Positions 19,245-44,313 of a stretch of 64,000 nt of DNA are shown one piece after another. The translations under genes and the position numbers were made by a program. This stretch comes from Escherichia phage JM10: the sequence record PP400777; one strand, 5' to 3'. Positions within the stretch are counted from its first letter, which is position 1; every line of letters starts with the position of its first letter. The notes under the pieces were generated by a model that was given only the letters and a program-made list of their open reading frames with translations, was not told where the DNA came from and made no database searches.

Positions 19245-19607
19245 TTAAAAGAATTTAAATTTTTTCTTGGTTCGTTCATTAAAAGCTTGTTGTACTTGCA
19301 TTGTAACACATTTTTCAACATGTGGTGCAAGTTCTGCTTTTCTGTCCTGGTCAAGAACTGCAAAGTCCATTACGATTTTACCATCAACCCAGTCTAGTTT
19401 TGTAATATAGACTATATGATGAGAACCGTCTTCAAGTGTAATCAGAATCTCTTGAATGACATTTTCCATTGCTGAACGGATAATTTTAAGAGATTCATTA
19501 AACACTCGTTCTTTGCGAATGTCTTCCCCTTCCGAAGAAGGGGATTCATCAACGATTTCTAGATTTAAATCATCGAGATTATTCATCGAAATCTTCCATT
19601 TCGTCAA
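19245..19607 (-). CDS. 40: hypothetical protein, 120 aa (gene 40 position)
   Basis: Synteny between 41 and uvsX. Confidence 0.5.
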   Translation of the reverse strand: MTKWKISMNNLDDLNLEIVDESPSSEGEDIRKERVFNESLKIIRSAMENVIQEILITLEDGSHHIVYITKLDWVDGKIVMDFAVLDQDRKAELAPHVEKCVTMQVQQAFNERTKKKFKFF

Positions 19608-20751
19608 GGTCGTTTTCTATATCTGCTGCAGACGGAGCATCAGAAGTTTTAACCGGAACTTTAGTTGTTGCTTTGCAATTAATAAGGTCGTTAACAGCGT
19701 CATCAACTTCTTTAATAGAAGAGATAGCACCTAGTTTATATTTAGTTTCAATTGCATCTCGGAAAGGCTTATGTTTAAACAACGGCCCCCAGAATTCTAC
19801 ACAATCAGTAGCTTTAGCACGCCATGATTTTTCTTCACGAATCATTTCACCTGTTTCTTCGTCAAGGAATTCACGAGCATACCACCCGGCTTTAGGCTTA
19901 ACTACAAAACCAATTTCAGTTGCCATTTCTAACAAGCCACTGAATGGGTCAATACCGCCATCAAAATTAACCGTGATCGGGAAAGTAGATTTTTCTTTAA
20001 CAGTACGAGATTTTTCAGCTTTCAACGTGAAGTCATAACCGGTCAATTCTGTACCTTCTTTAACCTGACGTTTAGAGATAAAAAATACCGTGTTGGCAGA
20101 ATAAAGAATACCTGTACCACCGCCCATAATCTCTTTAGGATACAATCCGCCGATTTCCATTGCGGTATGGTTAATTGCAACACACGGAATATCTTTAATA
20201 GTCAGATACGGGGTCACAATACGGAAAAGAGATTTAAGTGCCTTAGCACGAGACATATCACCTACAACTTTCTCGTTCAACGCATCTTCGGTTTCTTTCT
20301 TAGATGCAGTATTACCGATTGAATCGATAAAGATAATAACTTTATCACCACGTTCAATCGCGTCAAGCTGATTAGTCATATCGACTTTAAGTTGTTCGAC
20401 AGATTGAATCGGAGTATGAACTACACGGTCTAAATCAACACCCATTGAACGAAAATAAGATTCTGAAGCACCGAATTCTGAGTCATAAAACAAACAGATT
20501 GCATCTTTATATTTCTTCATATACGCTGCAACCATAGTTAGTCCAAACAATGTTTTAAAATGTTTAGAAGGTGCAGCAAAAATAGTCAAGCCTGATTGCA
20601 ATCCTGCATTCAGAGCACCGCCTAGTGCAATATTCAACATCGGAATACGAGTAGGGACTTCATCACGATTATTAAACAGCTTAGACTTAGTCAAGTCTGC
20701 AGTCATTTTAGAAGTAGAAGCTTTAATCAGACGAGATTTTAAATCAGACAT
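19579..20751 (-). CDS. uvsX: UvsX recombinase (RecA family)
   Basis: 390 aa; RecA-like core; synteny. Confidence 0.9.
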   Translation of the reverse strand: MSDLKSRLIKASTSKMTADLTKSKLFNNRDEVPTRIPMLNIALGGALNAGLQSGLTIFAAPSKHFKTLFGLTMVAAYMKKYKDAICLFYDSEFGASESYFRSMGVDLDRVVHTPIQSVEQLKVDMTNQLDAIERGDKVIIFIDSIGNTASKKETEDALNEKVVGDMSRAKALKSLFRIVTPYLTIKDIPCVAINHTAMEIGGLYPKEIMGGGTGILYSANTVFFISKRQVKEGTELTGYDFTLKAEKSRTVKEKSTFPITVNFDGGIDPFSGLLEMATEIGFVVKPKAGWYAREFLDEETGEMIREEKSWRAKATDCVEFWGPLFKHKPFRDAIETKYKLGAISSIKEVDDAVNDLINCKATTKVPVKTSDAPSAADIENDLDEMEDFDE

Positions 20752-20850: not shown

Positions 20851-21399
20851 TTAACGAGCCCATTTGATGATTTCTGTAATCAAATCATTACGTTCGCTTG
20901 CATTAAATCCTATAACTTTGTTAGCACCATCATGATTAAGTAATTGATACGTTTGGATTTTGTTATGAATTGCAAACTCTTCAAAATGTGAAATGACTGT
21001 ATTAAAACCGAATGAAGACAAAGTAATAAGATCGTCTTCAAAACTTTCAGTCATTTCGTTACGTGTTAAAATAATTGTGAACACATCATGGTTTTGGCAA
21101 AGACGAACATAATCCTGTTCATAAACGTCAAGAACCGAGTCCGCATCTTGTCGAATACGTCCATAAACCCAGTTACTAATATATCCACGGTCTAATAGAT
21201 AAATCTTAGTAGGGTCTAAATAATTCAACATCGTTTCGAAACAGCCAACTTCATTTCGAGACTTAACATCGAAACGTCCATCAACTGTTCGTTTAGGGAA
21301 ATCAATCTTTACATATCTTTCACTAATTTCCATTATGTCATTAATGAAAGTTGTTTTACCAGCATTATCCGGGCCATCTACTAAAATAATTTTAGCCAT
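20851..21399 (-). CDS. thymidylate-kinase-like P-loop nucleotide kinase
   Basis: 182 aa; P-loop ILVDGPDNAGKTT; DRY-like motif LDRGYISNWVYG. Confidence 0.55.
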   Translation of the reverse strand: MAKIILVDGPDNAGKTTFINDIMEISERYVKIDFPKRTVDGRFDVKSRNEVGCFETMLNYLDPTKIYLLDRGYISNWVYGRIRQDADSVLDVYEQDYVRLCQNHDVFTIILTRNEMTESFEDDLITLSSFGFNTVISHFEEFAIHNKIQTYQLLNHDGANKVIGFNASERNDLITEIIKWAR

Positions 21400-21400
21400 T

Positions 21401-22300
21401 TTATTCCTCGATTACGACATCTTCGTATTTAGGTATATTATACGGTGAAGAAATTAAAGCGTTAAAGTAGATGAACTCACCAAGACCTGGATGGAATACT
21501 TCTTCAGGATTTTCGAAATATTGAATCTTCGGACGTCCTTTAAGAATTTGATAGTACTCAGTTTTAGTTGGTTTAAAAATTCGAATCAACGCTTCTTCAG
21601 GATACTTATTTCTGTCGAAGCTATTATTTGGATCGGTTATATAAAGCGGTTGGCCTAATTGAATTGCACATTCAACCACTTGTTCAAAACGATAGCACGG
21701 GTCACTAATTCGAAATGGATGAAAAATACCATCTAGATGAATAGGAGCCAAATCACCTACAAGACGCTGCATGATGGAAGGACGTATAACTTTCTGCGTT
21801 ACGATAATCTTATTACCATCTGCACCTGCGTTAACCAGCACTTCTTTTTGACGTTCATTCAACACAGTAGTTTGAAGTGAACGATTAACCGACAACATAT
21901 CAGTTTTTAAGAATTCGTCAATATAAAAACGTGGTTTATTAGGGTCTGCAGTGATATTGAAATTGAATTCCACATCAAAAGCGCCGTCATATCCGGTGAT
22001 ATCTGTGATTAGAAAATCACAATCATAATAAGCAATTAATGAATCAACCACAAATTCATTTTCAGACCAGAAATATTTACGAGTGTTATACGCGTTATCT
22101 TTATACCATAATGGAACAAACTTAAATTCTGGGAAAAGACGTTCGCATTCTTTAATATCGGATGCATTACGTGGATATGTAATCACATCGCCTGGATTAG
22201 CACGGTGCAAATGAAGTTGGAAGTTGCCATCCTTAAGGATAGCATACTGTCCAGTTTCATAAGACCGCATACTCAAAATAGGTACGCGGAAAATAGCCAT
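21401..22300 (-). CDS. hypothetical protein, 299 aa, at the T4 beta-gt position; candidate sugar transferase (inference)
   Basis: No motif recognised by eye; translationally coupled between gene 42 and the Tmk-like gene. Confidence 0.5.
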   Translation of the reverse strand: MAIFRVPILSMRSYETGQYAILKDGNFQLHLHRANPGDVITYPRNASDIKECERLFPEFKFVPLWYKDNAYNTRKYFWSENEFVVDSLIAYYDCDFLITDITGYDGAFDVEFNFNITADPNKPRFYIDEFLKTDMLSVNRSLQTTVLNERQKEVLVNAGADGNKIIVTQKVIRPSIMQRLVGDLAPIHLDGIFHPFRISDPCYRFEQVVECAIQLGQPLYITDPNNSFDRNKYPEEALIRIFKPTKTEYYQILKGRPKIQYFENPEEVFHPGLGEFIYFNALISSPYNIPKYEDVVIEE

Positions 22301-23016
22301 TAGTCAAGGAATCCTTTAACATAATCAAAATCACGTTCAAACACATGGGCACTTACCATGGTATGAGTATAATCACCAACTTCTACACCACATTCGTTAG
22401 CGATATAATGAAGTAATTTTCCTTGGAGATAAAAATCCAACTGCATAACAACAGCACAGTTCTGAGAACGCATATGACAGTGGGTATAAAGCTTACCATC
22501 ACGAATATAATAAGTCACTGAGTCAGTACATGGATATTCAAGCGTTTCGTCTGAATCAAGCAAAGCCTGATCAGAACTTTCTAGAATTTGGAACACAACT
22601 CTTCGAGAGTTAGGCTTCTCTTTAAGTTCTTTTAGAAGAGTTGGTAATTGGGCCGCAATGCGAGGACCATAGAAAGTGTTGAAGTTCGCCGGCAAAACAT
22701 CTGATTTTGGTTTAGAAATAAATTTAGCGACATTAGGATATGCCTTAAACGCTTCTTCTGCGTTGGTACCACCAGAAATCATAAACTTCCAGAAGTCTTC
22801 GGCATATTCATAAGAGATGCGGTTAATACGTGGGTCGGTCATTTTGAATGATGATGGAGTGTCAACAACTACTGTCATAGACCCAATTTCATTACAACGT
22901 CCAATACGAGAATCAGTTACGAATTCCGGGTTTTCTAAAATTTCACGATTGACTGCTTTAAATGCGGTTTGAAAATCTGCGGCTTTGATATATTTCATTG
23001 TGTTATGTTTTCCCAT
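22300..23016 (-). CDS. 42: dCMP hydroxymethylase (thymidylate-synthase fold)
   Basis: 238 aa; PCTDSVTYYIRDGKLYTHCHMRSQNCAVVMQLDF...CGVEVGDYTHTMVSAHVF parallels TS PCH..FQFYV.DGKL.CQLYQRS.D; synteny. Confidence 0.75.
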   Translation of the reverse strand: MGKHNTMKYIKAADFQTAFKAVNREILENPEFVTDSRIGRCNEIGSMTVVVDTPSSFKMTDPRINRISYEYAEDFWKFMISGGTNAEEAFKAYPNVAKFISKPKSDVLPANFNTFYGPRIAAQLPTLLKELKEKPNSRRVVFQILESSDQALLDSDETLEYPCTDSVTYYIRDGKLYTHCHMRSQNCAVVMQLDFYLQGKLLHYIANECGVEVGDYTHTMVSAHVFERDFDYVKGFLD

Positions 23017-23058
23017 GTTTACCTCAATACAATTTATTATATACTCAATTCGTAAAGC

Positions 23059-23298
23059 TTATTTGAATTTCTTGACAATGTTGATATAACGTAAAGCTTC
23101 AGCATCGATACTTCCAAGAACACTATGAAGAAATGCATCAGCGTAGTATTCCAATTGAACAGGTTCTTTAATCACTTTAGCCGCTTTAGTTTCAAACAGG
23201 CCCATCAGGGCCTGTTTAAGAATTTGTTCATTAGTGTTCAGTTTCATAGTCAAAATCTCTTCATTAAGTTGGTGGTTAAAAGTTTTTCTAGAAATCAT
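23059..23298 (-). CDS. hypothetical protein, 79 aa
   Basis: ORF track. Confidence 0.45.
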   Translation of the reverse strand: MISRKTFNHQLNEEILTMKLNTNEQILKQALMGLFETKAAKVIKEPVQLEYYADAFLHSVLGSIDAEALRYINIVKKFK

Positions 23299-24455
23299 TC
23301 CGGGTACCTCAAAGCGTCATCAGAGTTAGTTATATCAATAATAGATATAGAGTTTTCTGCTAACCCGTTTTTAGATAATTGACGTTTATAATATCTTTCA
23401 CAATATGTACACGTCGTCCCGCAGATTTCATTAGCACAATCGAAATCTGGATGTCTGAACCACCTTTTTTCTAAAAAGCCATCTAACAAAGAGGTTTCAA
23501 TATTTACTGTATGTGAAAACTCAGTTTCGTTTTCAAGAGTGAAAATAGTCTCTAAAGGCTTCCACAGTTCTAACAAATTACCTTCAAACTTTTCAGAAGC
23601 GTATGCTTCAAGAACTTTCAAAATGTAGTCTGTACTACCTGTACGTCCTGAAACTTTGAATTGAGTGATACCAATATCATTATAAAGTTTCAAATCTTGA
23701 GGACGAACAAAACGAGTTCTCAACCAGTTAAATGGGTCTGTATCACGAGCTTTAATACAGTGCTGCATAGGATATCCGTTTAAGGATTTAGCATCATCAG
23801 CTGTAACATCAGTACTATGGAAAATATAGCAAGAGTCACGATAGCTACAATGTGTTGTATACCCTTTACCAGCATTAGAACAGAACTCATTTACAAGAAC
23901 TTCAAATATTATATTGTTCTTATTGCAAAACTCTGCTGCACGCTTCAGGAAAGAAACTGAACGGTTCTTATGAATTCCACAGCAGACCTTTTTGATATTA
24001 TATTGGTCATGCAAGTATTTGATTTGAGTTACAGCATCGACATGTAGAATTGTTGAAACTTCAATCTCAATGTCTTTATTGACTTCACGAACAATTTCCA
24101 TAACAACAGGGTTAGCGATAGTAATACGCCATACGCCTATTGACCAAAGATACTGAACATAATCCTGAATAGCTTTCTTCTTCCACTCAACTAGTTCTCT
24201 TTTTGAACCAGGATTTATCGTGTTGAGTGTATAGTTAAAGCAAATACCTAATTCGTTACAACGTTTAACGTAATCTTCTAACATCTTTTTGTCAACGTCA
24301 GGAAGCCTAAAATCAGGTCTGGCTGCTACAAAAGCCATTTCTCTTGTAGAGCCGTATACTTCGTTTATCAAGCTATTAGGATAAGTTTTATTGAGCTCTA
24401 CGATTTTATCAAGAAGAGCTAAATCAAAATTCGTTCCGATTTTAAAAGTATTCAT
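23295..24455 (-). CDS. hypothetical Cys-rich protein, 386 aa; candidate modification enzyme (inference)
   Basis: C-terminal cluster DFDCANEICGTTCTYCERYY (contains CxxxCxxC); inside the sugar operon. Confidence 0.5.
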   Translation of the reverse strand: MNTFKIGTNFDLALLDKIVELNKTYPNSLINEVYGSTREMAFVAARPDFRLPDVDKKMLEDYVKRCNELGICFNYTLNTINPGSKRELVEWKKKAIQDYVQYLWSIGVWRITIANPVVMEIVREVNKDIEIEVSTILHVDAVTQIKYLHDQYNIKKVCCGIHKNRSVSFLKRAAEFCNKNNIIFEVLVNEFCSNAGKGYTTHCSYRDSCYIFHSTDVTADDAKSLNGYPMQHCIKARDTDPFNWLRTRFVRPQDLKLYNDIGITQFKVSGRTGSTDYILKVLEAYASEKFEGNLLELWKPLETIFTLENETEFSHTVNIETSLLDGFLEKRWFRHPDFDCANEICGTTCTYCERYYKRQLSKNGLAENSISIIDITNSDDALRYPE

Positions 24456-24511: not shown

Positions 24512-24898
24512 TTATAGATTAGGTTTATATGATTTAAATGTTTCGAATTCGCCTTTATTCATAAGAGCTTTGAATTCGTCAGGACGCATAGCTTTGTCGT
24601 CGATAATCCAATCATATACTGGTTTATGTGTTAGCAAATTATGGTACTTCAAGCCAATGTTTGCCAAGTTCTGAATCAGACTTGGGAGAATGTCAATTGC
24701 TATACGTCCAGGACCTACTGACTTCATACCGCGAGCAGTGTAAAGCGTTATTGTATGCCCTGCATCATACAGAGCATTAATGGCAGACACCATTTCGACG
24801 TCTGGTTTGAAGTTCACGTAATCACGATTGTTATTCCACTCTGTTATACAATCATCGACATCAAAACAAAGATTAAGCATGTTTTCTACACGGTGCAT
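24512..24898 (-). CDS. HAD-superfamily phosphatase (sugar-phosphate phosphatase-like)
   Basis: Motif I LCFDVDDCIT near N-terminus; start probably at an internal Met overlapping the upstream stop. Confidence 0.6.
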   Translation of the reverse strand: MHRVENMLNLCFDVDDCITEWNNNRDYVNFKPDVEMVSAINALYDAGHTITLYTARGMKSVGPGRIAIDILPSLIQNLANIGLKYHNLLTHKPVYDWIIDDKAMRPDEFKALMNKGEFETFKSYKPNL

Positions 24899-26583
24899 TA
24901 GATTCGTTCCCATTGATGAGTGATATCGCCACCGATTGGACGATAGGAAACACCAGTTTCTTTATCAGTTAGTACCCATTTACCAGGATTTTTTGTAATC
25001 AGAGTAGCCGTTACAGGTTCTGCTACGTCATAACTAATAGAGCCGTCCTGAAGTACACGGCCCATGTTACGTAATTGCTTAGTCAGAAGTTCCATACCTT
25101 TATAATATGCGGCTACCGCTTTAAGTGGATTATTCTTGAAATAACCACCTAATGCAATCCAGATAATTGCCACTGCCAAATGATGATACTCGTTAAACGA
25201 ACTCATCTTTCCATATTTGTAAACTAATGGATTGATGTTAATAGTCACATTACAAGTTGTTTCATCAATAGTAAACTGTCCCCAGGTCGGATTAGCATTG
25301 AATTCATCATAACCTGAAACAGCATAAAGCACTTTAGCTTCATCATACAATTTTGGCCCGTAAATCTTGGTTTCGCCAAAATATCCACGAGGGTCGATAA
25401 ACTTGACTTCGCCGTTATCAGTAATCATAGTATTACTGAAGTTCGGGTCACCGTGAATAACAGAGTACTGCCCCTGAGAACGGTTATGATAACGAATAAG
25501 GTGTTCTAAAGCTTGTTTCAGCATTGGCTTCAGACGTCCAATCTTAGTGTAGTTCACATGTGTGATTTTACCAAATGAATCAATCAATGGTTGAATGCTT
25601 TCACAACGATCAATAACTTTCGTATAGAATTCTTTAGTGAAATCACGACGAACAGTTTCAGGACTTACAAAATAAGTGTCTGTGCTGAATTTCAGTGCAT
25701 CTAAAATTGCATCAACAATTTGTGGACGAGCAAGACTTGATTTGGATTTAATATATTCAAATGCCGGCTTACCTTTAATGCGTTCCATTTCAAAGTTATT
25801 TTCATTAACAGAAACTAACTGAGGAACTGAATCTGATTTCACTTTAAGATACCATGAAATCTCATCTTTCTGAAGAGCTCGACCTTGTTCAGTTAATGCG
25901 AATTTAGTTACAGTTTCTTCACCAATTTCAACTGCATTAAAACTACGATTAAGTTCACGAACTTCATGAGCTTTTTCAAGTTTAGGCATATCACCTAAAT
26001 CAATTATATTCATAAGCTCTGATTTATTGAATGCGCCGCTGTAAAGGAATTCTACAAAATCACGTCCTTTGCAGTATTCATGAATTTCCTCATCGGTAGA
26101 ACCCATATAGAATTCCCAGTCTTTGAACTGATAAATTCCTACAACATTACCACCTGTTGAACCTACGTTAGTGATATTTTCACCGTCGAAATTATAGCGA
26201 CATTCGTCACCCTTAACATAGATTGCGTTGACATTCCAAGACCATGAACCAAAATCAGGAATAATATCGCACCAGTTAACAATTACGTTATGGCCATCTA
26301 AATCTTTGTGTAATTTAGCAAGAGCATAAGCAGATCCGTATGCTTCATCAACTGTACGAATAGTCACATTGAACCCTTCTTGCTCACAATAAGCTCGAAC
26401 AGTTTCAGCAAATTTTGAATGAACTACTACAATAATTTCATCTGCGCCAAGGTCAGAATAAATTGTATACAAATTGCTCAGAATAGTGTCTTGTTTATAG
26501 TTAACAAGCACCTTAGGAATATGATGCGTTATTGGATACAAACGAGTTGCCAGTCCAGCACCAAGAATAACAGCTTTTTTCAT
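24898..26583 (-). CDS. bifunctional sugar-1-phosphate nucleotidyltransferase (N-terminal) / protein-kinase-like sugar kinase (C-terminal)
   Basis: 561 aa; N-terminus MKKAVILGAGLATRLYPIT (RmlA-like G-x-G-T-R-L); C-terminal HGDPNFSN (HGDxxxxN) and FIDPRG (APH/choline-kinase family). Confidence 0.7.
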   Translation of the reverse strand: MKKAVILGAGLATRLYPITHHIPKVLVNYKQDTILSNLYTIYSDLGADEIIVVVHSKFAETVRAYCEQEGFNVTIRTVDEAYGSAYALAKLHKDLDGHNVIVNWCDIIPDFGSWSWNVNAIYVKGDECRYNFDGENITNVGSTGGNVVGIYQFKDWEFYMGSTDEEIHEYCKGRDFVEFLYSGAFNKSELMNIIDLGDMPKLEKAHEVRELNRSFNAVEIGEETVTKFALTEQGRALQKDEISWYLKVKSDSVPQLVSVNENNFEMERIKGKPAFEYIKSKSSLARPQIVDAILDALKFSTDTYFVSPETVRRDFTKEFYTKVIDRCESIQPLIDSFGKITHVNYTKIGRLKPMLKQALEHLIRYHNRSQGQYSVIHGDPNFSNTMITDNGEVKFIDPRGYFGETKIYGPKLYDEAKVLYAVSGYDEFNANPTWGQFTIDETTCNVTININPLVYKYGKMSSFNEYHHLAVAIIWIALGGYFKNNPLKAVAAYYKGMELLTKQLRNMGRVLQDGSISYDVAEPVTATLITKNPGKWVLTDKETGVSYRPIGGDITHQWERI

Positions 26584-26624: not shown

Positions 26625-26768
26625 CTAGTTAAAGCATTCATACTTCGCTTGTAGTCCAATCATAATCCATCCGATTATAAGAGTCGGAACCATTACTGGA
26701 GCCGTTAAGCTCCAGTAGATAGTCATGACAAGCATCAATAGTAAAAGTCCTATTGTTATTGCTTTCAT
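26625..26768 (-). CDS. small membrane protein, 47 aa
   Basis: Hand translation MKAITIGLLLLMLVMTIYWSLTAPVMVPTLIIGWIMIGLQAKYECFN; ATGA start/stop overlap with the SIS gene; SD GAGG. Confidence 0.45.
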   Translation of the reverse strand: MKAITIGLLLLMLVMTIYWSLTAPVMVPTLIIGWIMIGLQAKYECFN

Positions 26769-27400
26769 TGCTCGCCTCGTAACATGGCACCTAGTGCACC
26801 GCCTGGATGGAACTTAAGGAAGTCATTAGAGGTAAATCCACGTTCAGACGAAAGGTTGATAGCAAACGTATCGATAAGCGCTAACAACAATGTAGTGGAC
26901 ATAGTCGGAGCCAGAGAATTCTCATCAACCTCTACTGCGATGCCTGTACAGAACGTATAATCAAAAAGAGCTTCGTATTCTTGTGGAATGTCAGGGTTAC
27001 AATGTAACAGAATCTGTTTAACCTGAGGACGAATCATACGAAGATGTTTAGCAACACCTATCATTTCTTCAGTCTTACCAGAACGACTGATGTGAACTAA
27101 TACATCATTAGGTGCAATAAATCCTGCGTCACCATGAGAATAATGCCCGGTGTTCAAATACATGCTAGGAATACCGAGTGAAGCAAAAGTCTCGGAAGCT
27201 TTAGTTGCGATATTAGCATTCTTACCAACACCTGTAATAATTACTCGGCTTTCATAATTACTAAGTCCCGGGCGTCGAAGAGTTTCTAGAATAGCATTAT
27301 AACGAGCAGGGTTTTGACTAATTACTTTGGCCATAGCGGCCAAAGAAGAAGCTTGTTTTATGATTGCGTCAATAGCGATAGTAATAGGAGTAGTTTTCAT
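26765..27400 (-). CDS. SIS-domain sugar-phosphate isomerase (arabinose-5-phosphate isomerase KdsD/GutQ-like, no CBS domains)
   Basis: 211 aa; VIITGVGKNANIA, SRSGKTEE, HPGGALG. Confidence 0.7.
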   Translation of the reverse strand: MKTTPITIAIDAIIKQASSLAAMAKVISQNPARYNAILETLRRPGLSNYESRVIITGVGKNANIATKASETFASLGIPSMYLNTGHYSHGDAGFIAPNDVLVHISRSGKTEEMIGVAKHLRMIRPQVKQILLHCNPDIPQEYEALFDYTFCTGIAVEVDENSLAPTMSTTLLLALIDTFAINLSSERGFTSNDFLKFHPGGALGAMLRGEQ

Positions 27401-27440: not shown

Positions 27441-30152
27441 TCAAAAATCGAACATATCGAACAGAGATGCTTTCTTCTCGTAATCGAGTTTCGCTGCTGA
27501 TGTGAATCCTTCAAGTGGTTTAATAAATGTCTTCTCAAGGAGAACAGTGTAGTCCATCCAATGAAGTACGTCGTCTTTAATTAAATCTGTGATTTCAGTG
27601 CCAGAAGGCCATGCGATACATTTATCACCGAATGGGTTTCCTTCACGTAAAGGCAGAACATATACTTTTTCACCTTCTACAACTTGCGGTGCATCGATAT
27701 TACCTTTGATAGCCCGGTTATACGTCAGAATTCCACGAATATGGAACGGGCATTTGGGACCAGGGAATCCACCGACATCATATTTAGCAATGTTATTCGC
27801 AGAAGATACCGACGCGATGCTAATATAATTCAATTGACGGAATTCTTTTTCAAACTCTTTAAAATATTCTTGTAATGATTCTTCACCTTCTTGAAGCATA
27901 CGACGAATACATTCTTTAAGAGCTTTCTGTACTGCTTTAGGGGTCGAAGATTTCTGAGTCTCTAGACCCATGATTTTGAGTTTAGGCTCAGCGTAACGAG
28001 TGCCTTCCATATCCCACACGTTTAATGCATAACGTTTCTTACCAGTCCAGAATCCACCAATACCTTTAGAACCGAGCGGAGGACCAGCGATAGCTTCTCG
28101 GTCCATGAACATTAAGTGTTGTTTATTGTTCATGTATTCACACATTTCACGGAAACCTCTATCAATAGCAGGTTCCATACGTTCACGAGCGAACTTATCT
28201 AAGAAGTCTACCCAATGGTTGGTATCACGGAATTTAGATTCACCAACCTTATCGATAATTTTATCAGCAGATACGTAAATAGAGTCTGTATCACCATAAA
28301 GAACGAAAGCTTCACCTTCTGTACCACAAACTTCATTCAGATATTCATTAACTTTACGTTCAATCCACTGTAAAGCCATTTGCCCGAATGTTGTGATTGC
28401 AGTAGCATTACGCAAATCATAATAACGGAACCAAACGTTTCCAAGTGCACCATAAAGCGAGTTGATGAGCAATTTACGGTTAATCTGTGCAGTCATACCT
28501 GCAACTTCAGTACGTTGAGCTCTAAACAACATTTCATTAAGAGATTTAGCAGACAACTTTTTAATCTTTTCTTTAATCTCAACGCTGAAGTCGAAACGAT
28601 AATCAACATCTAACGGTTCGTCAACAGAAAGATTAGGATTATGCAATGCCTCTTTAATTATTTCACCATTACGTTGAGCTGCAAGCATGTAACCTTTATG
28701 TTCTTTACGTTGATTAAAGACCTTAGTGATTTCAGTTGGAACTACACCATCACGGTCTTTATAATACATCATGCCGTTAGGAGAACAACTGTACACATCT
28801 GAAGGACGTTCAGCGATTGCGTTAATATAATCATGCAGTGGAGCTACTTTAAACGTTCCTGCTATTGTTTCCGGGCTAATATTCACTTGGCGAATAATAC
28901 TTGGATACAGAGATGTAAGGTCGAAACTCATTACATATTTGTATCGATTTGGAATAGGTTCCTTAACAAAAGCGCCAGGATAAGGTTGAACTGGGTGAGA
29001 ACGACCTTGTGGAATCACCTTGTTCTGTTCTTTAAGGCTATTAAAAATAATAGCATCCCATGTTTTAATTGGGCTAAACACAGATTGAATCTGTATCTTA
29101 GCATAATAACCCATGTCCAAACTCAAGTTGATGAACTGACGCTTAGCATCAATTTGCAATACACGATACACGTCGATAATGTTATAAGAAATATATCGTT
29201 GGTGATTGCTTTCACGAAGCTTAGAAATAGGGCCGTCATATTTCAGTTTACCAACGTTCAATTCAAATTCTGAAATGTAATCCAGAGAATACGACGGTTG
29301 ATTGGTAAAAGAGAATTTTTTGTAAAGGTCAATGTAATCAAGAACAGAGATACCGAACAATGTAATGATTTCACGAGAACCATACATGTTTTCGATAACT
29401 TTAACACGAGTTTTACGATGTGGTGATAAACGTTTCGCAGTAGATTCGCCAAAAATATTCTTGATTCGGTTATACACATATGGAATATCAAATGACTCAA
29501 CGTTCCATCCAGTCAAAATGACAGGAGTTTTCTGTTGCCAGAAGTTGAGATATTCCATCAACAATTCTTTTTCGTTATCGAACGGCATATAAATGATTTT
29601 ATCAATAATTTCGGATGGAACTTCATCACCGCCTTGTTCTTGAAGCTTAGCCGCAATTTCGATAGACCATTCTTCTACATTACCATACGGAGAATTCAAT
29701 AGATCAAATACGTAGAACCTGTCGTCAATTGAGTCATAATGGGTGATAGCATCAATCGGATGTTTTGCTTGTGACGGCTCAGGGAACCCATCCGGAGATG
29801 TTACTTCGATGTCGAAGTTAGCCACACGAATTTTTGTATGGTCGTATTTGATTTCATAGTTATAAGTGTCAGACAAATACGCCAATTTGAAATCGTCCAT
29901 GCCAAGTGCTTCAAGTCCGATATCTTCCATGCGTTTAATCCATTGGGAGGCATCACGCATATTAGCGAACAACTTACGAGTACACGGCTTACCGTAGATA
30001 TCGAAATATTTCGTAGCCTGACTTTCTGGACAATGAGCAAACAGTGATGGTTTATATTCTACTTCACGAGTACGTTCACGGCCATTAGAATCGATGTAAC
30101 GTTCAAAAATTGAATCACCAATCTGTTCAACCGTTAAGTAAAATTCTTTCAT
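27441..30152 (-). CDS. 43: DNA polymerase gp43 (family B)
   Basis: 903 aa; exonuclease and polymerase motifs (YGDTDS); synteny. Confidence 0.95.
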   Translation of the reverse strand: MKEFYLTVEQIGDSIFERYIDSNGRERTREVEYKPSLFAHCPESQATKYFDIYGKPCTRKLFANMRDASQWIKRMEDIGLEALGMDDFKLAYLSDTYNYEIKYDHTKIRVANFDIEVTSPDGFPEPSQAKHPIDAITHYDSIDDRFYVFDLLNSPYGNVEEWSIEIAAKLQEQGGDEVPSEIIDKIIYMPFDNEKELLMEYLNFWQQKTPVILTGWNVESFDIPYVYNRIKNIFGESTAKRLSPHRKTRVKVIENMYGSREIITLFGISVLDYIDLYKKFSFTNQPSYSLDYISEFELNVGKLKYDGPISKLRESNHQRYISYNIIDVYRVLQIDAKRQFINLSLDMGYYAKIQIQSVFSPIKTWDAIIFNSLKEQNKVIPQGRSHPVQPYPGAFVKEPIPNRYKYVMSFDLTSLYPSIIRQVNISPETIAGTFKVAPLHDYINAIAERPSDVYSCSPNGMMYYKDRDGVVPTEITKVFNQRKEHKGYMLAAQRNGEIIKEALHNPNLSVDEPLDVDYRFDFSVEIKEKIKKLSAKSLNEMLFRAQRTEVAGMTAQINRKLLINSLYGALGNVWFRYYDLRNATAITTFGQMALQWIERKVNEYLNEVCGTEGEAFVLYGDTDSIYVSADKIIDKVGESKFRDTNHWVDFLDKFARERMEPAIDRGFREMCEYMNNKQHLMFMDREAIAGPPLGSKGIGGFWTGKKRYALNVWDMEGTRYAEPKLKIMGLETQKSSTPKAVQKALKECIRRMLQEGEESLQEYFKEFEKEFRQLNYISIASVSSANNIAKYDVGGFPGPKCPFHIRGILTYNRAIKGNIDAPQVVEGEKVYVLPLREGNPFGDKCIAWPSGTEITDLIKDDVLHWMDYTVLLEKTFIKPLEGFTSAAKLDYEKKASLFDMFDF

Positions 30153-40983: not shown

Positions 40984-41454
40984 TTAATCATGTTTCCACA
41001 CCCCATCAGTATTTGACCAAAGTCGCTGATTATCTGATCCTCGCCACAGCTTTTTAGTCGGAAGATTTTTCTCATACTTCCCATCAATAATAACATCAAC
41101 ATATTTAAGCATTTCTAGTTGTTTAATATCTTCAAACTTATATCCTGTCCACAACCAAATGCTTTTATTTGGATAAAGATTTTTAATAGTTTGAACCACA
41201 GAGTGAATCACATCTCTGTTATCAGGATAGAGAGGGTCACCTCCGGTTATAGTCAATCCTTCTATATAATCATTATTCAAACATTCAATTAATTGTTCTA
41301 GTGTTTCACCAGTGAATGGAATACCATTTCTAGCATTCCATGTTGATTTATTATAACACCCTTCGCATTTATGCAAACAACCTGTGACGAAAAGAACGAC
41401 CCTGCAACCAGGGCCATTCACAAAATCGCAAGGATAAAATCTATCATAATTCAT
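40984..41454 (-). CDS. nrdG: anaerobic ribonucleotide reductase activating protein NrdG (radical SAM)
   Basis: 156 aa; CDFVNGPGCRVVLFVTGCLHKCEGCYN. Confidence 0.9.
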   Translation of the reverse strand: MNYDRFYPCDFVNGPGCRVVLFVTGCLHKCEGCYNKSTWNARNGIPFTGETLEQLIECLNNDYIEGLTITGGDPLYPDNRDVIHSVVQTIKNLYPNKSIWLWTGYKFEDIKQLEMLKYVDVIIDGKYEKNLPTKKLWRGSDNQRLWSNTDGVWKHD

Positions 41455-42756
41455 TGGTGTTTAACCCTATGCATGATTTCTTTATTTTTACCAAGATTAA
41501 ATCCGCGTTCGTTCGGATTTCCCAAATAACCGCATGTTCTTCTTATGGTGTTCATCTTTTTAGGATCACTTTCTCCACAAACTGAACAAACAAATCCGTT
41601 TTCAGTAGGAGTCATTTCATGGGTACTTCCACATGTAAAACATTTATCTACTGGCATATTAACACCAAAATAATCTAAATGTTGTGCAGCATAATCCCAG
41701 ACAGCCTCAAGTCCCTTTAAATTGTTTTTCATATCTGGAAGTTCAACATAAGAAATGTGACCACCTGTCGCAATGAAATGATATGGCGCTTCACGAGAAA
41801 TCTTTTCAAACGGAGTAATATTTTCTTCTACTGAAACATGGAAACTGTTAGTGTACCAGCCTTTATCGGTGACATCCTTTACACTTCCATATTTTTCTGT
41901 ATCAAGTTTACAGAAGCGATAACAAAGGTTTTCAGCAGGAGTAGAATATAAACTAAAAGCAAATCCAGTTCTTTCAGACCACTGTTTAAGATGAGCATTC
42001 ATTTTAGTTAAAATTTCTTGTCCAATATCACGACCGACAAGAATATTCAATTCGTGAATACCGATGTATCCCAAAGACACTGAACTTCTACCGTTTTTAA
42101 ATAACTCAATTATGTCGTCATCAGGTTTAAGACGAACCCCGAATGCACCTTCTTGGTAAAGAATAGGAGCTACAGTTGCTTTAACACCCTTTAAAGAACT
42201 AATTCTACACATCAAGGCTTCAAAACACAGATCCATTCGTTCATTAAATAGCTCAACAAATTTCTGTTCATTGAACTGTGTTCCAATATAAGAATCTAAC
42301 GCAATACGAGGAAGATTCAATGTTACAACACCAAGATTATTACGTCCGTCAAGAATTTCATTTCCAGTTGAATCTTTCCATACACTCAAGAAACTACGAC
42401 AGCCCATTGGAGAAACTGGAACTGAAGAACCAGTAATAGCTTTATTATTCTTAGCTGAAATAATATCAGGATACATCCTTTTGCTTGCGCACTCTAAAGC
42501 AAGTTGCTTAATGTCGTAATTCGGATCGTCTTTATAAAGATTAACGCCTTCTTCAACGAACATAACAAGCTTAGGGAAAATAGGAGTTATCCCATCACGT
42601 CCAAGACCTTTAATACGATTTTTCAGAATTGCTTTCTGAATCATTCGTTCGGTCCAGTCAGTTCCCGTACCAAATGTAATTGTTACAAAAGGAGTCTGTC
42701 CGTTTGAACTGAAAAGTGTATTTACTTCATCATTATATTCAGCATGAGTCGCAAAT
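41451..42756 (-). CDS. nrdD: anaerobic ribonucleotide reductase NrdD, exon 2 (5' boundary approximate)
   Basis: C-terminal zinc ribbon CFTCGSTHE...CSVCG and glycyl-radical region; ends KNKEIMHRVKHQ; upstream exon separated by about 1 kb. Confidence 0.8.
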
Positions 42757-43527
42757 TCATGCCCGTTTATATGAAACAACAAAATTTGGATAGTCCATAG
42801 ATATGCAACGTTCTTTTATAGTGCTAGGATGAAAATTTAGCGCTTTAGCTGCTTCTATATAAGACGTATACTTAATACCGTCAACAACCACATATTCAGG
42901 AACTTTATGAATAGTAGTCTTAATACTCAAAACAAGAGGATGAGTTTCGACTTCACTTTCAGTGCAATTTAAATATTCCGCTGCTTTTTTAAAACTTCTA
43001 AAAGTTTTATTTTTAAGCTTTATCGATACTTGTTTTTTACTTTTTCGACTATTGATATTATTTTGCACATGTTCCTTAGATCTTCCGTTTTTAGCATAAT
43101 ATTCAGCTACAGAAGATTTTATATTGTTTTTATGAGATTCGGATAACACTTTACCCTTATGAGCATCTCTTAATTTTTGAATATGTTCTTCAGTATCCGG
43201 ATGCTTATAAAACTTTTTACCGCCTATGGATTTATTTAAACATTTTTTGCTATAAAAATATTTACGTATGACCTCTTCTTCATGTTTTAATGCATCTTTA
43301 TAACTATCAAATGTTTTTAAAATTATCCATTTAGTAGGTGTATCAGTTTTTAAGCGTTCATTTATATACTTAGATGACGTTGTGTAAGTTTTCCAGTTTG
43401 TGGGCTTGTTTTTAATTGTTCTAAATTTTTTATAACCGATATAAATGTCGCCATTAGAAAACTTAACTAAGTATGTAAATGCGTCTTTATCTTTTATTTT
43501 AGTACAACGTCTTTTTATCCATTTCAT
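42757..43527 (-). CDS. intron-encoded GIY-YIG homing endonuclease (I-TevII-like)
   Basis: 256 aa; DAFTYLVKFSNGDIYIGYKK (GIY-YIG); NUMOD3-like AHKGKVLSESHKNNI; inside the nrdD intron. Confidence 0.75.
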   Translation of the reverse strand: MKWIKRRCTKIKDKDAFTYLVKFSNGDIYIGYKKFRTIKNKPTNWKTYTTSSKYINERLKTDTPTKWIILKTFDSYKDALKHEEEVIRKYFYSKKCLNKSIGGKKFYKHPDTEEHIQKLRDAHKGKVLSESHKNNIKSSVAEYYAKNGRSKEHVQNNINSRKSKKQVSIKLKNKTFRSFKKAAEYLNCTESEVETHPLVLSIKTTIHKVPEYVVVDGIKYTSYIEAAKALNFHPSTIKERCISMDYPNFVVSYKRA

Positions 43528-43790
43528 TGTTTCACCTCGTATTCATAAGATAATCTTATTTATACAAGATGACTGCTGCATGTCGCCATGCAGATTAGAC
43601 TATATCTTCATCTTTCGATGCCGGCCGTTTCGAATAGCATTAGCTTCTATTCTACACCGCTACATTCATCACGGTTAGTCGTTAGGCATTTAGTTCAAAA
43701 GAACATTTAGCACGGGATTGTCTACTAGAGAGGTTCCCCGTTTAGACCGGTTTTACATGAGCCTGAATTAAATTAACTCATACGCCTGGA
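42757..43790 (-). mobile_element. group I self-splicing intron interrupting nrdD (boundaries approximate)
   Basis: NrdD reading frame broken between 42782 and 43768; intron RNA contains CUAAACGGGGAACCUCUCUAGUAGACAAUCCCGUGCUAAAU, recalled as T4 nrdD (sunY) intron core. Confidence 0.75.
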
Positions 43791-44313
43791 ATGCATCGTA
43801 TACATCTTTTTCTGTTTTAGATTGAGCATAATTCAACGCATCAGCGATTTGCCATTTTTCTGCATCCTCAATATGTTTTGCATAGGTGCGTTTAACATAA
43901 GGAGAAAGAACTTTATCTACATTCGCAAATGTAGTTCCGCCATACTGGTGTGAAGCAACTTGTGCGGTAATTTGTGCCATAATTGCAGTAGCAACACCAA
44001 TAGATTTAGGCGTTTCAATTTGAGCATTGCCTAATTTAAATCCATTCTCAAGCATCCCCTTTAAATCGACTAAACAGCAATTGGTAAACGGAAGAGCAGG
44101 AGAATAATCAATATCATGCATGTGAATGATTCCACTTTCATGCGCATTCATAATAAAAGACGGGACCATATTTTTGGCAATGTGCTTAGACACAATACCA
44201 GCCATAAGGTCCCGTTGAGTTGGAAAAACACGAGAATCTTTATTAGCATTCTCGTTTAAAAGATCTTTATTAGTTTTATGAATCAGTCCTTCAATTTCTT
44301 TTTCAATTTTCAT
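43768..44313 (-). CDS. nrdD: anaerobic ribonucleotide reductase NrdD, exon 1 (3' boundary approximate)
   Basis: 181-aa ORF ending inside the intron; exon 1 plus exon 2 total about 605 aa. Confidence 0.8.
   Translation of the reverse strand: MKIEKEIEGLIHKTNKDLLNENANKDSRVFPTQRDLMAGIVSKHIAKNMVPSFIMNAHESGIIHMHDIDYSPALPFTNCCLVDLKGMLENGFKLGNAQIETPKSIGVATAIMAQITAQVASHQYGGTTFANVDKVLSPYVKRTYAKHIEDAEKWQIADALNYAQSKTEKDVYDAFQAYELI

Follow-up and report, generated by a model that had tools for sequence, protein, structure and literature searches.

We analysed 64,000 nucleotides of the genome of Escherichia phage JM10 (PP400777; this whole stretch is referred to as the window), in which positions 21,401 to 24,455 form the core of an operon for the hypermodification of DNA with arabinosyl-5-hydroxycytosine. 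The overall pathway and the assignment of the transferase have been published; new, and of main interest here, is a lead on the 386-amino-acid protein encoded in this operon, a member of the Peptidase_U32 family (U32 protein in the following), together with the linkage of its gene to genes for chorismate mutase, DAHP synthase and a glycosyltransferase. The explanation accounting jointly for our data, to which we give slightly better than an even chance, is that a 299-amino-acid protein transfers the first arabinose while the U32 protein acts as a prephenate-dependent, O2-independent hydroxylase of pyrimidine C5. For the wider statement that the phage U32 clade as such consists of O2-independent, prephenate-dependent deoxypyrimidine C5 hydroxylases, with RB69-like phages using this route beside an O2-dependent enzyme of the thymidylate synthase (TS) fold and many uncultured phages using the U32 route only, we put the chance just short of even. 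In the literature searched, no paper linked U32 proteins, prephenate or chorismate mutase to phage DNA modification.

The 386-amino-acid protein is a TIM barrel of the U32 family, and neither a transferase nor a radical S-adenosylmethionine (SAM) enzyme. Its residues 94-286 match Pfam Peptidase_U32 (PF01136) with 42.2 bits against a cut-off of 22.4 (E 7.3e-11), and it belongs to phrog_5757 'peptidase' (E 5e-267); the match to NCBIfam UbiU (E 9e-4) stayed under the cut-off of that model. In an AlphaFold2 model (pLDDT 94, pTM 0.92) the chain folds into a TIM barrel whose top Foldseek match in the PDB was 5d88 (E 8.5e-7, target-normalised TM-score 0.69), the U32 protein Mk0906, which served as fold reference being the only solved member of the family. 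The initial annotation, made from the letters of the DNA, had described this protein and the 299-amino-acid protein as orphans. This does not apply, as the first has more than 260 homologues, with a U32 gene in 221 phage records, and the second at least 138 homologues and a presence in 348 phage records. Neither yielded a meaningful PDB match by single sequence or by family profile; only the comparison of folds succeeded. The relevant features are the following:

23295..24455, minus strand: 386-amino-acid U32-family TIM-barrel protein (RB69 gp50), based on Pfam PF01136, AlphaFold2/Foldseek, cysteines and the neighbourhood census
23757..23882, minus strand: codons of the U32-motif cysteines C192, C203, C209 and C233, from homologue alignments
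23388..23447, minus strand: codons for DFDCANEICGTTCTYCERYY, the C-terminal CX4CX3CX2C cluster (C340, C345, C349, C352), from homologue alignments

Ten cysteines of the protein (C158, C177, C192, C203, C209, C233, C340, C345, C349 and C352) are conserved to at least 98% in 121 homologues reaching down to 48% identity. Alignment with UbiU, UbiV, RlhA and TrhP of E. coli (NC_000913.3) placed three of them at canonical U32 positions:

C192: UbiU C169, RlhA C169, TrhP C170; none in UbiV
C209: UbiU C176, UbiV C180, RlhA C176, TrhP C177
C233: UbiU C193, UbiV C197, RlhA C192, TrhP C193

The equivalent cysteines of UbiU and UbiV are proven [4Fe-4S] ligands (PMC6747719), and in RlhA C169 and C176 are essential, with extra C-terminal cysteines needed too (PMC5727448). 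C203 is likewise invariant and sits in a clade-specific insertion of 10 residues. On the N-terminal side of C192 there are two glutamates, the invariant E190 and E185 (conserved to at least 90%), as candidates for the U32-motif glutamate; the register is one residue off RlhA E161, which is nearly essential (PMC5727448). The peptide DFDCANEICGTTCTYCERYY at residues 337-356 contains C340, C345, C349 and C352, all invariant in the 121 homologues, with the spacing CX4CX3CX2C; according to the alignment, such a cluster is not present in UbiU, UbiV, RlhA and TrhP. This peptide had already been pointed out in the initial annotation, with a CxxxCxxC spacing and the suggestion that it might bind metal or an Fe-S cluster. 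The peptide is indeed there, its full spacing being longer, and membership in U32 together with the three conserved canonical ligand positions makes binding of an Fe-S cluster plausible. A Pfam scan detected neither a DUF3656 nor a Peptidase_U32_C domain.

In E. coli, RlhA is needed for the 5-hydroxycytidine (ho5C2501) of 23S rRNA (PMC5727448), TrhP for the 5-hydroxyuridine (ho5U34) of tRNA (PMC6599085) and UbiU/V for the anaerobic hydroxylation of ubiquinone (PMC10990095). All of them depend on Fe-S clusters and on prephenate (PMC5727448, PMC6599085, PMC10990095), and labelling identified prephenate as the donor of the oxygen in ubiquinone (PMC10990095). E. coli also possesses O2-dependent counterparts for the same step, TrhO beside TrhP and UbiI/H/F beside UbiU/V. 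With RlhA and TrhP the phage protein has in common the Pfam family, the TIM barrel and the cysteines corresponding to RlhA C169, C176 and C192. The chemistry of these enzymes, hydroxylation of a pyrimidine (C or U) at C5, is the one required by the window operon, and the link to prephenate is found in phages in the form of neighbouring chorismate mutase and DAHP synthase genes. The phage protein differs from both by its very low sequence similarity, the 10-residue insertion with an extra cysteine, an apparently displaced fourth ligand, the CX4CX3CX2C tail present only in the phage clade and the missing DUF3656 and Peptidase_U32_C domains; furthermore, its substrate is presumably a deoxynucleotide or DNA instead of RNA. 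UbiU-UbiV resembles the situation proposed for the phage in that a flavin/O2 hydroxylase is paired with a U32 Fe-S prephenate route, and in having two Fe-S sites in total (PMC6747719, PMC10990095). However, UbiU-UbiV is a heterodimer with one cluster in each subunit acting on a prenylated phenol, whereas the 386-amino-acid chain would hold both sites alone and would act on a nucleotide. A UbiT-like partner is absent from the phage, the sole candidate partner being the product of a 79-amino-acid open reading frame (ORF).

The neighbourhoods of 56 U32 loci were surveyed with flanks of 8-10 kb on each side. Fifteen of these loci are T-even-like, and 41 are divergent (40-56% identity, from IMG/VR and metagenomes). 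The numbers of loci with a given gene, T-even-like first, were:

Homologue of the 299-amino-acid transferase: 15/15 and 23/41
AfhE-like kinase/pyrophosphorylase: 15/15 and 17/41
SIS isomerase: 11/15 and 10/41
Chorismate mutase: 13/15 and 11/41
DAHP synthase: 0/15 and 7/41 (5 fused to chorismate mutase)
Chorismate mutase or DAHP synthase: 13/15 and 13/41
dCMP deaminase: 0/15 and 8/41
TS-like hydroxylase: 15/15 and 1/41 (a weak match)

In the divergent loci that have them (13/41), the chorismate mutase or DAHP synthase genes were no farther than about 1.7 kb from U32. The transferase homologue directly adjoins or overlaps the U32 gene in about a dozen of the 41. In locus L005, the genes are arranged in the order transferase, SIS, AfhE-like, U32, DAHP synthase and epimerase, with no TS homologue. 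The AfhE-like protein of this locus shows 29% identity over 522 amino acids (E 4e-50) to the 561-amino-acid protein of the window, and its DAHP synthase scored 237 bits on the NCBIfam model versus 63 bits for KDO8P synthase. Such divergent phages thus have sugar-activation and transferase genes and a shikimate gene, and within the flanks surveyed no candidate for a base hydroxylase other than the U32 protein was seen. In L008, L018 and L019 it is paired with the transferase, and no sugar-activation genes are found. Thymidylate-kinase domains, dUTPase, UDG-like proteins, DnaE, deoxynucleoside kinase and NT5C were further neighbours. A thymidylate-kinase-like kinase is encoded in the flanks of all 15 T-even-like loci; among the divergent ones the domain appears in the Pfam lists of L002, L006, L008 and L018, partly as faint matches, and the phmmer census gave 0/41.

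A radical SAM gene (often SPASM) lies within a few kb of a U32 homologue in four unrelated metagenomic loci (L002:1-249, L003:12160-13185, L018:7980-9011, L019:7972-9000). Both L018 and L019 show the succession Tmk-like protein, radical SAM protein, transferase homologue, U32 and DnaE. A maturase and a further modification step are both possibilities for this neighbour. The uncultured phage locus L017:7777-16179 encodes Gly_transf_sug, a transferase homologue, U32, a TAGT-like glycosyltransferase, a dUTPase/dCTP deaminase and, further on, a UDP-galactopyranose mutase. A similar set underlies the proposal of galactofuranose-based glycosylation of 5-hydroxycytosine in Rhizobium phage RL38J1, here with U32 in the place of the TS-like hydroxylase. 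Positions 8001-15428 of L003, an 86-kb ENA contig, have a bacterial-looking context with a dockerin/GH43 protein nearby. Two U32 paralogues are found here together with NT5C, a PnuC-like transporter, a deoxynucleoside kinase, a truncated AlaRS-like protein, the radical SAM/SPASM protein and a nucleoside 2-deoxyribosyltransferase, which suggests a cellular cluster for modification or salvage of deoxynucleosides using the same U32 clade.

In the T-even-like loci, the indirect link to prephenate is chorismate mutase. The U32 stop codon of the Enterobacter phage Entb_45 is overlapped by a gene for a 79-amino-acid AroQ chorismate mutase (Pfam CM_2, 40.9 bits, cut-off 27) retaining the catalytic residues R11, R28, K39 and E52. 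By tblastn, chorismate mutase of this type was detected in 56 phage records, with Klebsiella, Serratia, Yersinia, Enterobacter, Edwardsiella, Erwinia, Proteus and Providencia as hosts and including the Shewanella phage Thanatos. Most of the annotated records have a U32 peptidase or a TS homologue among the features under the match. Mosigviruses are devoid of the chorismate mutase and keep only the unrelated 79-amino-acid ORF049 protein; in Yersinia phage phiR1-RT and Serratia phage 92A1, a chorismate mutase gene and an ORF049-type gene stand side by side.

JS98 and the Acinetobacter phage DLP3 lack exactly the segment of U32, chorismate mutase and ORF049 between the phosphatase and the TS homologue. 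The DNA of DLP3 contains tri-arabinosylated 5-hydroxycytosine (PMC13326640). Since DLP3 arabinosylates its DNA without the cassette, the latter is dispensable for glycosylation; JS98 is known here from its genes alone. Of the 348 phage records with the transferase, 57 belong to Acinetobacter phages, and none of these 57 contains a U32 gene. Acinetobacter is a strict aerobe. The phage genome containing the window operon encodes NrdD, NrdG and a GrcA-like protein, which serve anaerobic dNTP synthesis. The U32 protein is also the most conserved one of the operon: it is 86.7% identical to its counterpart in Entb_45, while the TS homologue reaches 81% and the transferase 68%. In phages of Klebsiella, Yersinia, Serratia, Proteus and Shewanella the U32 protein is 82-89% identical, and the adjoining transferase 47-72%. 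Such conservation across genera indicates a very strong constraint or a recent horizontal spread of the cassette.

According to the mechanism we propose, the U32 protein would be an Fe-S enzyme hydroxylating a pyrimidine deoxynucleotide at C5, most likely dCMP to 5-hydroxy-dCMP (5hodCMP), with the oxygen taken from prephenate instead of O2. The U32-motif cysteines may hold one [4Fe-4S] cluster; the C-terminal CX4CX3CX2C motif may bind either another cluster or a metal and so serve electron transfer. In the window phage, prephenate would be provided by PheA and TyrA of the host, and the chorismate mutase of its relatives would raise the supply. This would constitute an anaerobic route to 5hodCMP parallel to the O2-dependent hydroxylase of the TS fold. 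Precedents for such parallel routes are found in the host, with TrhP beside TrhO and UbiU/V beside UbiI/H/F, and the phage offers a further parallel with its own NrdDG beside NrdAB.

The known cytosine hydroxylase needs O2, and the hosts live largely without it; a prephenate route, if true, would explain how the protective modification of DNA comes about in the gut. Prephenate-dependent hydroxylation would then be extended from RNA and quinones to DNA precursors, with the phage protein as the first U32 enzyme acting on these. For dozens of uncultured phages with U32, transferase and shikimate genes and no TS-like hydroxylase, hydroxylated and glycosylated pyrimidines would be expected, and the O-glycosylated 5-hydroxypyrimidine DNA of such phages would be built in this way in anoxic habitats. 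Being small and of a single chain, the 386-amino-acid protein is also a candidate for the first reconstitution of a U32 enzyme in vitro, and it would then offer a compact, soluble model of this chemistry. As Mosigviruses are isolated and studied for biocontrol and therapy, an anti-restriction modification under anoxia could matter there as well.

Several observations weigh against the proposed hydroxylase. At the fourth canonical ligand position (RlhA C196, TrhP C197, UbiU C232) the alignment places no cysteine in the phage protein, and the spacing is CX10CX5CX23C instead of the canonical CX6CX15CX3/4C. C203 could be the obvious substitute for the missing ligand, with C158 and C177 as alternatives. 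No chorismate mutase is encoded anywhere in the window. The U32 gene is missing from JS98-like E. coli phages and from some Serratia and Enterobacter phages, although the hosts are facultative anaerobes. A strict rule relating the presence of U32 to aerobic or anaerobic hosts was considered and holds only partly, as it fits the 0/57 of Acinetobacter but JS98-like coliphages lack the gene, too. In eight divergent loci a dCMP deaminase gene is found beside U32 (L002, 7447-8004, overlapping the U32 start; L006, 7504-7929; L037, L041, L044, L045, L062 and L064), so that the substrate there could be dUMP, giving 5-hydroxy-dUMP, and not dCMP. Furthermore, no U32 hydroxylase has been reconstituted in vitro, the assay still being awaited in 2024 (PMC10990095). 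Finally, Lee et al. label RB69 gp50, without discussion, as 'sugar or heterocycle reductase' (PMC13326640, Table 1). The same paper mentions two pathways of tRNA pyrimidine hydroxylation, whose enzymes are unrelated to 5hodCMP synthase, and does not connect them to gp50.

Alternatively, the U32 protein might use prephenate to hydroxylate cytosine, or another base, in polymerised DNA after replication. RlhA and TrhP work on polymeric RNA (PMC5727448, PMC6599085), and the linkage to chorismate mutase, DAHP synthase and transferase would fit equally well. We nevertheless regard this as rather unlikely, because a thymidylate-kinase-like kinase accompanies all 15 T-even-like loci, the neighbouring dCMP deaminase, dUTPase, deoxynucleoside kinase and NT5C point to the nucleotide pool, and the protein has no nucleic-acid-binding extension of the DUF3656 or Peptidase_U32_C type. 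A different redox step on arabinose or on a nucleotide-sugar intermediate, as implied by the reductase label of Lee et al. (PMC13326640), would agree with the co-occurrence of U32 with AfhE-like (17/41) and SIS (10/41) proteins in divergent loci. But a sugar reductase would give little reason for the recurrent adjacency of chorismate mutase or DAHP synthase, and L008, L018 and L019 combine U32 and transferase without sugar-activation genes. To our knowledge, no member of U32 is a reductase. DLP3 produces tri-arabinosyl-5-hydroxycytosine without U32, which is thus not needed for UDP-arabinofuranose or for arabinosylation, and isomerase, AfhE-like enzyme and phosphatase suffice to explain this sugar nucleotide (PMC13326640). 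We therefore hold a reductase function to be slightly less probable than hydroxylation of the polymer.

It is improbable, to a greater degree than both of the preceding, that the U32 protein hydroxylates phage or host tRNA or rRNA and is linked to the DNA-modification genes by position only. In its favour, T-even phages encode tRNAs. All characterised U32 enzymes acting on nucleic acids act on RNA, like TrhP and RlhA (PMC5727448, PMC6599085). On the other hand, the neighbours in divergent phages are genes for deoxynucleotides and DNA glycosylation (transferase 23/41, dCMP deaminase 8/41; thymidylate-kinase domains, dUTPase and DnaE in individual loci), T-even relatives lose U32 together with chorismate mutase and keep the rest of the operon, and the RNA-associated C-terminal domains of TrhP and RlhA are missing. 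The least probable role by far is that of a second glycosyltransferase, a radical SAM enzyme or a collagenase-like peptidase, notwithstanding the CX3CX2C string and the annotations as 'peptidase' or 'collagenase-like protease' in many records. The predicted TIM barrel with 5d88 as top match is not a glycosyltransferase fold, and arabinosylation proceeds in DLP3 without U32. For the radical SAM reading of CxxxCxxC there is no match to PF04055; the motif occupies residues 345-352 of 386, while the core motif of that family is N-terminal, and a fourth invariant cysteine, C340, precedes it. The name 'peptidase' is historical in U32, the characterised members being Fe-S hydroxylation factors (PMC6747719, PMC10990095). 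Of the two further roles which the initial annotation had offered for one of the pair, addition of a second sugar is thus contradicted by DLP3, and processing of the base, the role we favour for the U32 protein, is plausible.

The source of the window is an RB69-like T-even phage (Mosigvirus). The region from 20.8 to 27.4 kb shows 98% identity to more than 150 Mosigvirus genomes (RB69 group) of Escherichia and Shigella, and matches the RB69 gp55-gp45 operon gene for gene with protein identities of 94-100%. All genes of the operon are on the minus strand between the DNA polymerase gene gp43 (27441-30152) and uvsX (19579-20751). They are transcribed in the order SIS isomerase, 561-amino-acid protein, HAD phosphatase, U32 protein, 79-amino-acid protein, TS homologue, 299-amino-acid protein and 182-amino-acid protein. 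Besides U32, the genes are:

26765..27400, minus strand: 211-amino-acid SIS-domain arabinose-5-phosphate isomerase (RB69 gp55); Pfam SIS, phrog_5670 arabinose 5-phosphate isomerase
24898..26583, minus strand: 561-amino-acid bifunctional sugar kinase / UDP-sugar pyrophosphorylase (RB69 gp52:53, AfhE-like); assignment from PMC13326640
24512..24913, minus strand: 133-amino-acid HAD-type phosphatase (RB69 gp51, AfhF-like); phrog_1238, assignment from PMC13326640
23059..23298, minus strand: 79-amino-acid RB69 ORF049c-like protein; ORF call, start overlapping the U32 stop (ATGA)
22300..23016, minus strand: 238-amino-acid TS-fold dCMP 5-hydroxylase (5hodCMP synthase), 'gene 42' of the initial annotation; Pfam, PDB, RB69 gp48
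21401..22300, minus strand: 299-amino-acid GT-B glycosyltransferase, orthologue of RB69 gp46:47 and putative base-proximal arabinosyltransferase; fold and synteny
20851..21399, minus strand: 182-amino-acid thymidylate-kinase-like nucleotide kinase (RB69 gp45); phrog_761 thymidylate kinase, E 1.6e-45

In the 561-amino-acid protein, the N-terminal part matches Pfam NTP_transferase, and matches of the C-terminal part to kinase families are weak. Isomerase, AfhE-like protein and HAD phosphatase together make UDP-arabinofuranose (PMC13326640). Whereas the transferase and AfhE-like genes are split in the RB69 reference, which Lee et al. put down to sequencing errors (PMC13326640), both are intact in the window. 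Otherwise, the window operon shows no structural difference to the arabosyl-5-hydroxycytosine pathway of RB69, HY126 and DLP3 (Thomas 2018, PMC6024577; Lee et al. 2026, PMC13326640).

The 238-amino-acid protein matches Pfam Thymidylat_synt (E 1.9e-15). It shares only 25% identity with gp42 of T4 but 98.7% with gp48 of RB69, and is nearly identical to PDB entries 9iqc/9ir2 (E 2.9e-160). We take these entries to be the HY126 enzyme because their 9iq* numbering is shared with 9iqz ('phage HY126 glycosyltransferase'). Where gp42 of T4 has MRSND, the protein reads MRSQN, which is the D169N signature according to the rule of PMC13326640. The complete signature of 5hodCMP synthases, D169N (E. coli ThyA numbering) plus N177D, is seen in MRSQNCAVVMQLD of the window versus MRSNDVVFGFRND of T4. 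Judged by these residues and identities, 'gene 42' of the window encodes a flavin- and O2-dependent dCMP 5-hydroxylase (5hodCMP synthase) and not a hydroxymethylase. With the dCMP 5-hydroxylases of RB69 and HY126 it shares about 98% identity. RB69 gp48 converts dCMP to 5-hydroxy-dCMP with incorporation of 18O from O2 and binds flavin loosely (Lee et al., PMC13326640); according to these authors, the O2-dependent reaction of the HY126 enzyme was reconstituted by He et al. The modified base of RB69 DNA is mono- and di-arabinosyl-5-hydroxycytosine and not arabinosyl-hydroxymethylcytosine (PMC13326640, correcting PMC6024577), so 5-hydroxycytosine has to replace the hydroxymethylcytosine assumed in the initial annotation as substrate base. 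The spacer upstream of the TS-fold gene (23017-23058) contains AAGCTTTA, 11 nucleotides and TATAAT, which by eye looks like a MotA-dependent middle promoter of T4.

For the 299-amino-acid protein, no Pfam family was found at E <= 0.1 and no meaningful NCBIfam match. An AlphaFold2 model built from 83 homologues (pLDDT 96) predicts a GT-B structure of two Rossmann-like domains with an inter-domain cleft; 6kih, BshA and PimA are among the GT4-type enzymes nearest to it. Going by the predicted fold, it is a compact GT-B glycosyltransferase of GT4-like type. Fold and synteny suggest that it places the first arabinose on the 5-hydroxyl. The initial annotation had proposed a glycosyltransferase of unfamiliar fold within the pair; a transferase is indeed the likely identity of one of them, and its fold is a familiar one. 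Structure prediction and fold comparison, which had been suggested as a check, placed this protein in GT-B and the other one among the U32 TIM barrels. The arrangement described at that time is correct, too: the two ORFs flank the TS homologue, the stop codon of which overlaps the start of the 299-amino-acid ORF as TAATG, a sign of coupling, and in T4 it is beta-gt that lies directly downstream of gene 42.

Homology to T4 beta-gt was rejected, map position being the only feature in common; no sequence similarity was detected (best BLASTP E 3.7). In contrast to T4 beta-gt, and likewise alpha-gt, the donor of the RB69-type enzyme would be UDP-arabinofuranose and the acceptor 5-hydroxy- and not 5-hydroxymethylcytosine (PMC13326640). 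Individually, the DLP3 transferases, among them the orthologue of the 299-amino-acid protein, were inactive on 5-hydroxycytosine DNA ('data not shown'), and Lee et al. could not distinguish between transfer of the first sugar to the nucleotide and to DNA (PMC13326640). Within the window the two flanking ORFs were rightly named as the only candidates for the transferase; RB69 has a second transferase, gp3, which is absent from the window. Its map position is just beyond the left end, since the window begins within gene 39. The start codon of the 182-amino-acid kinase follows one base past the stop of the transferase gene.

The 79-amino-acid ORF between U32 and the TS homologue had been overlooked in the initial annotation. 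It is probably coupled translationally to the U32 gene, as judged from the ATGA overlap, and its product could serve the U32 protein as an accessory subunit. Among 1.8 billion proteins this very small family has 5 representatives; YYxDAFxHS..G..E..R is a motif conserved in it. A diverged AroQ chorismate mutase was considered for this ORF and rejected (no Pfam or NCBIfam match, BLASTP E 6.9, hhalign probability 0.3%).

Compared to RB69, the nrdD gene of the window (41454-44313) is interrupted by an insert of about 1 kb (42738-43776), residues 1-179 being encoded at 44313-43777 and residues 178-605 at 42737-41454. Positions 43576-43811 match a group I intron on the minus strand (RF00028, 70.9 bits); this match was found by the Rfam 'evalue' scan and missed by the 'gathering' scan. 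The insert contains a 256-amino-acid ORF (42757-43527) with a GIY-YIG-like 'GDIYIGY' motif. This is reminiscent of the nrdD/sunY intron of T4 with its homing-endonuclease gene.

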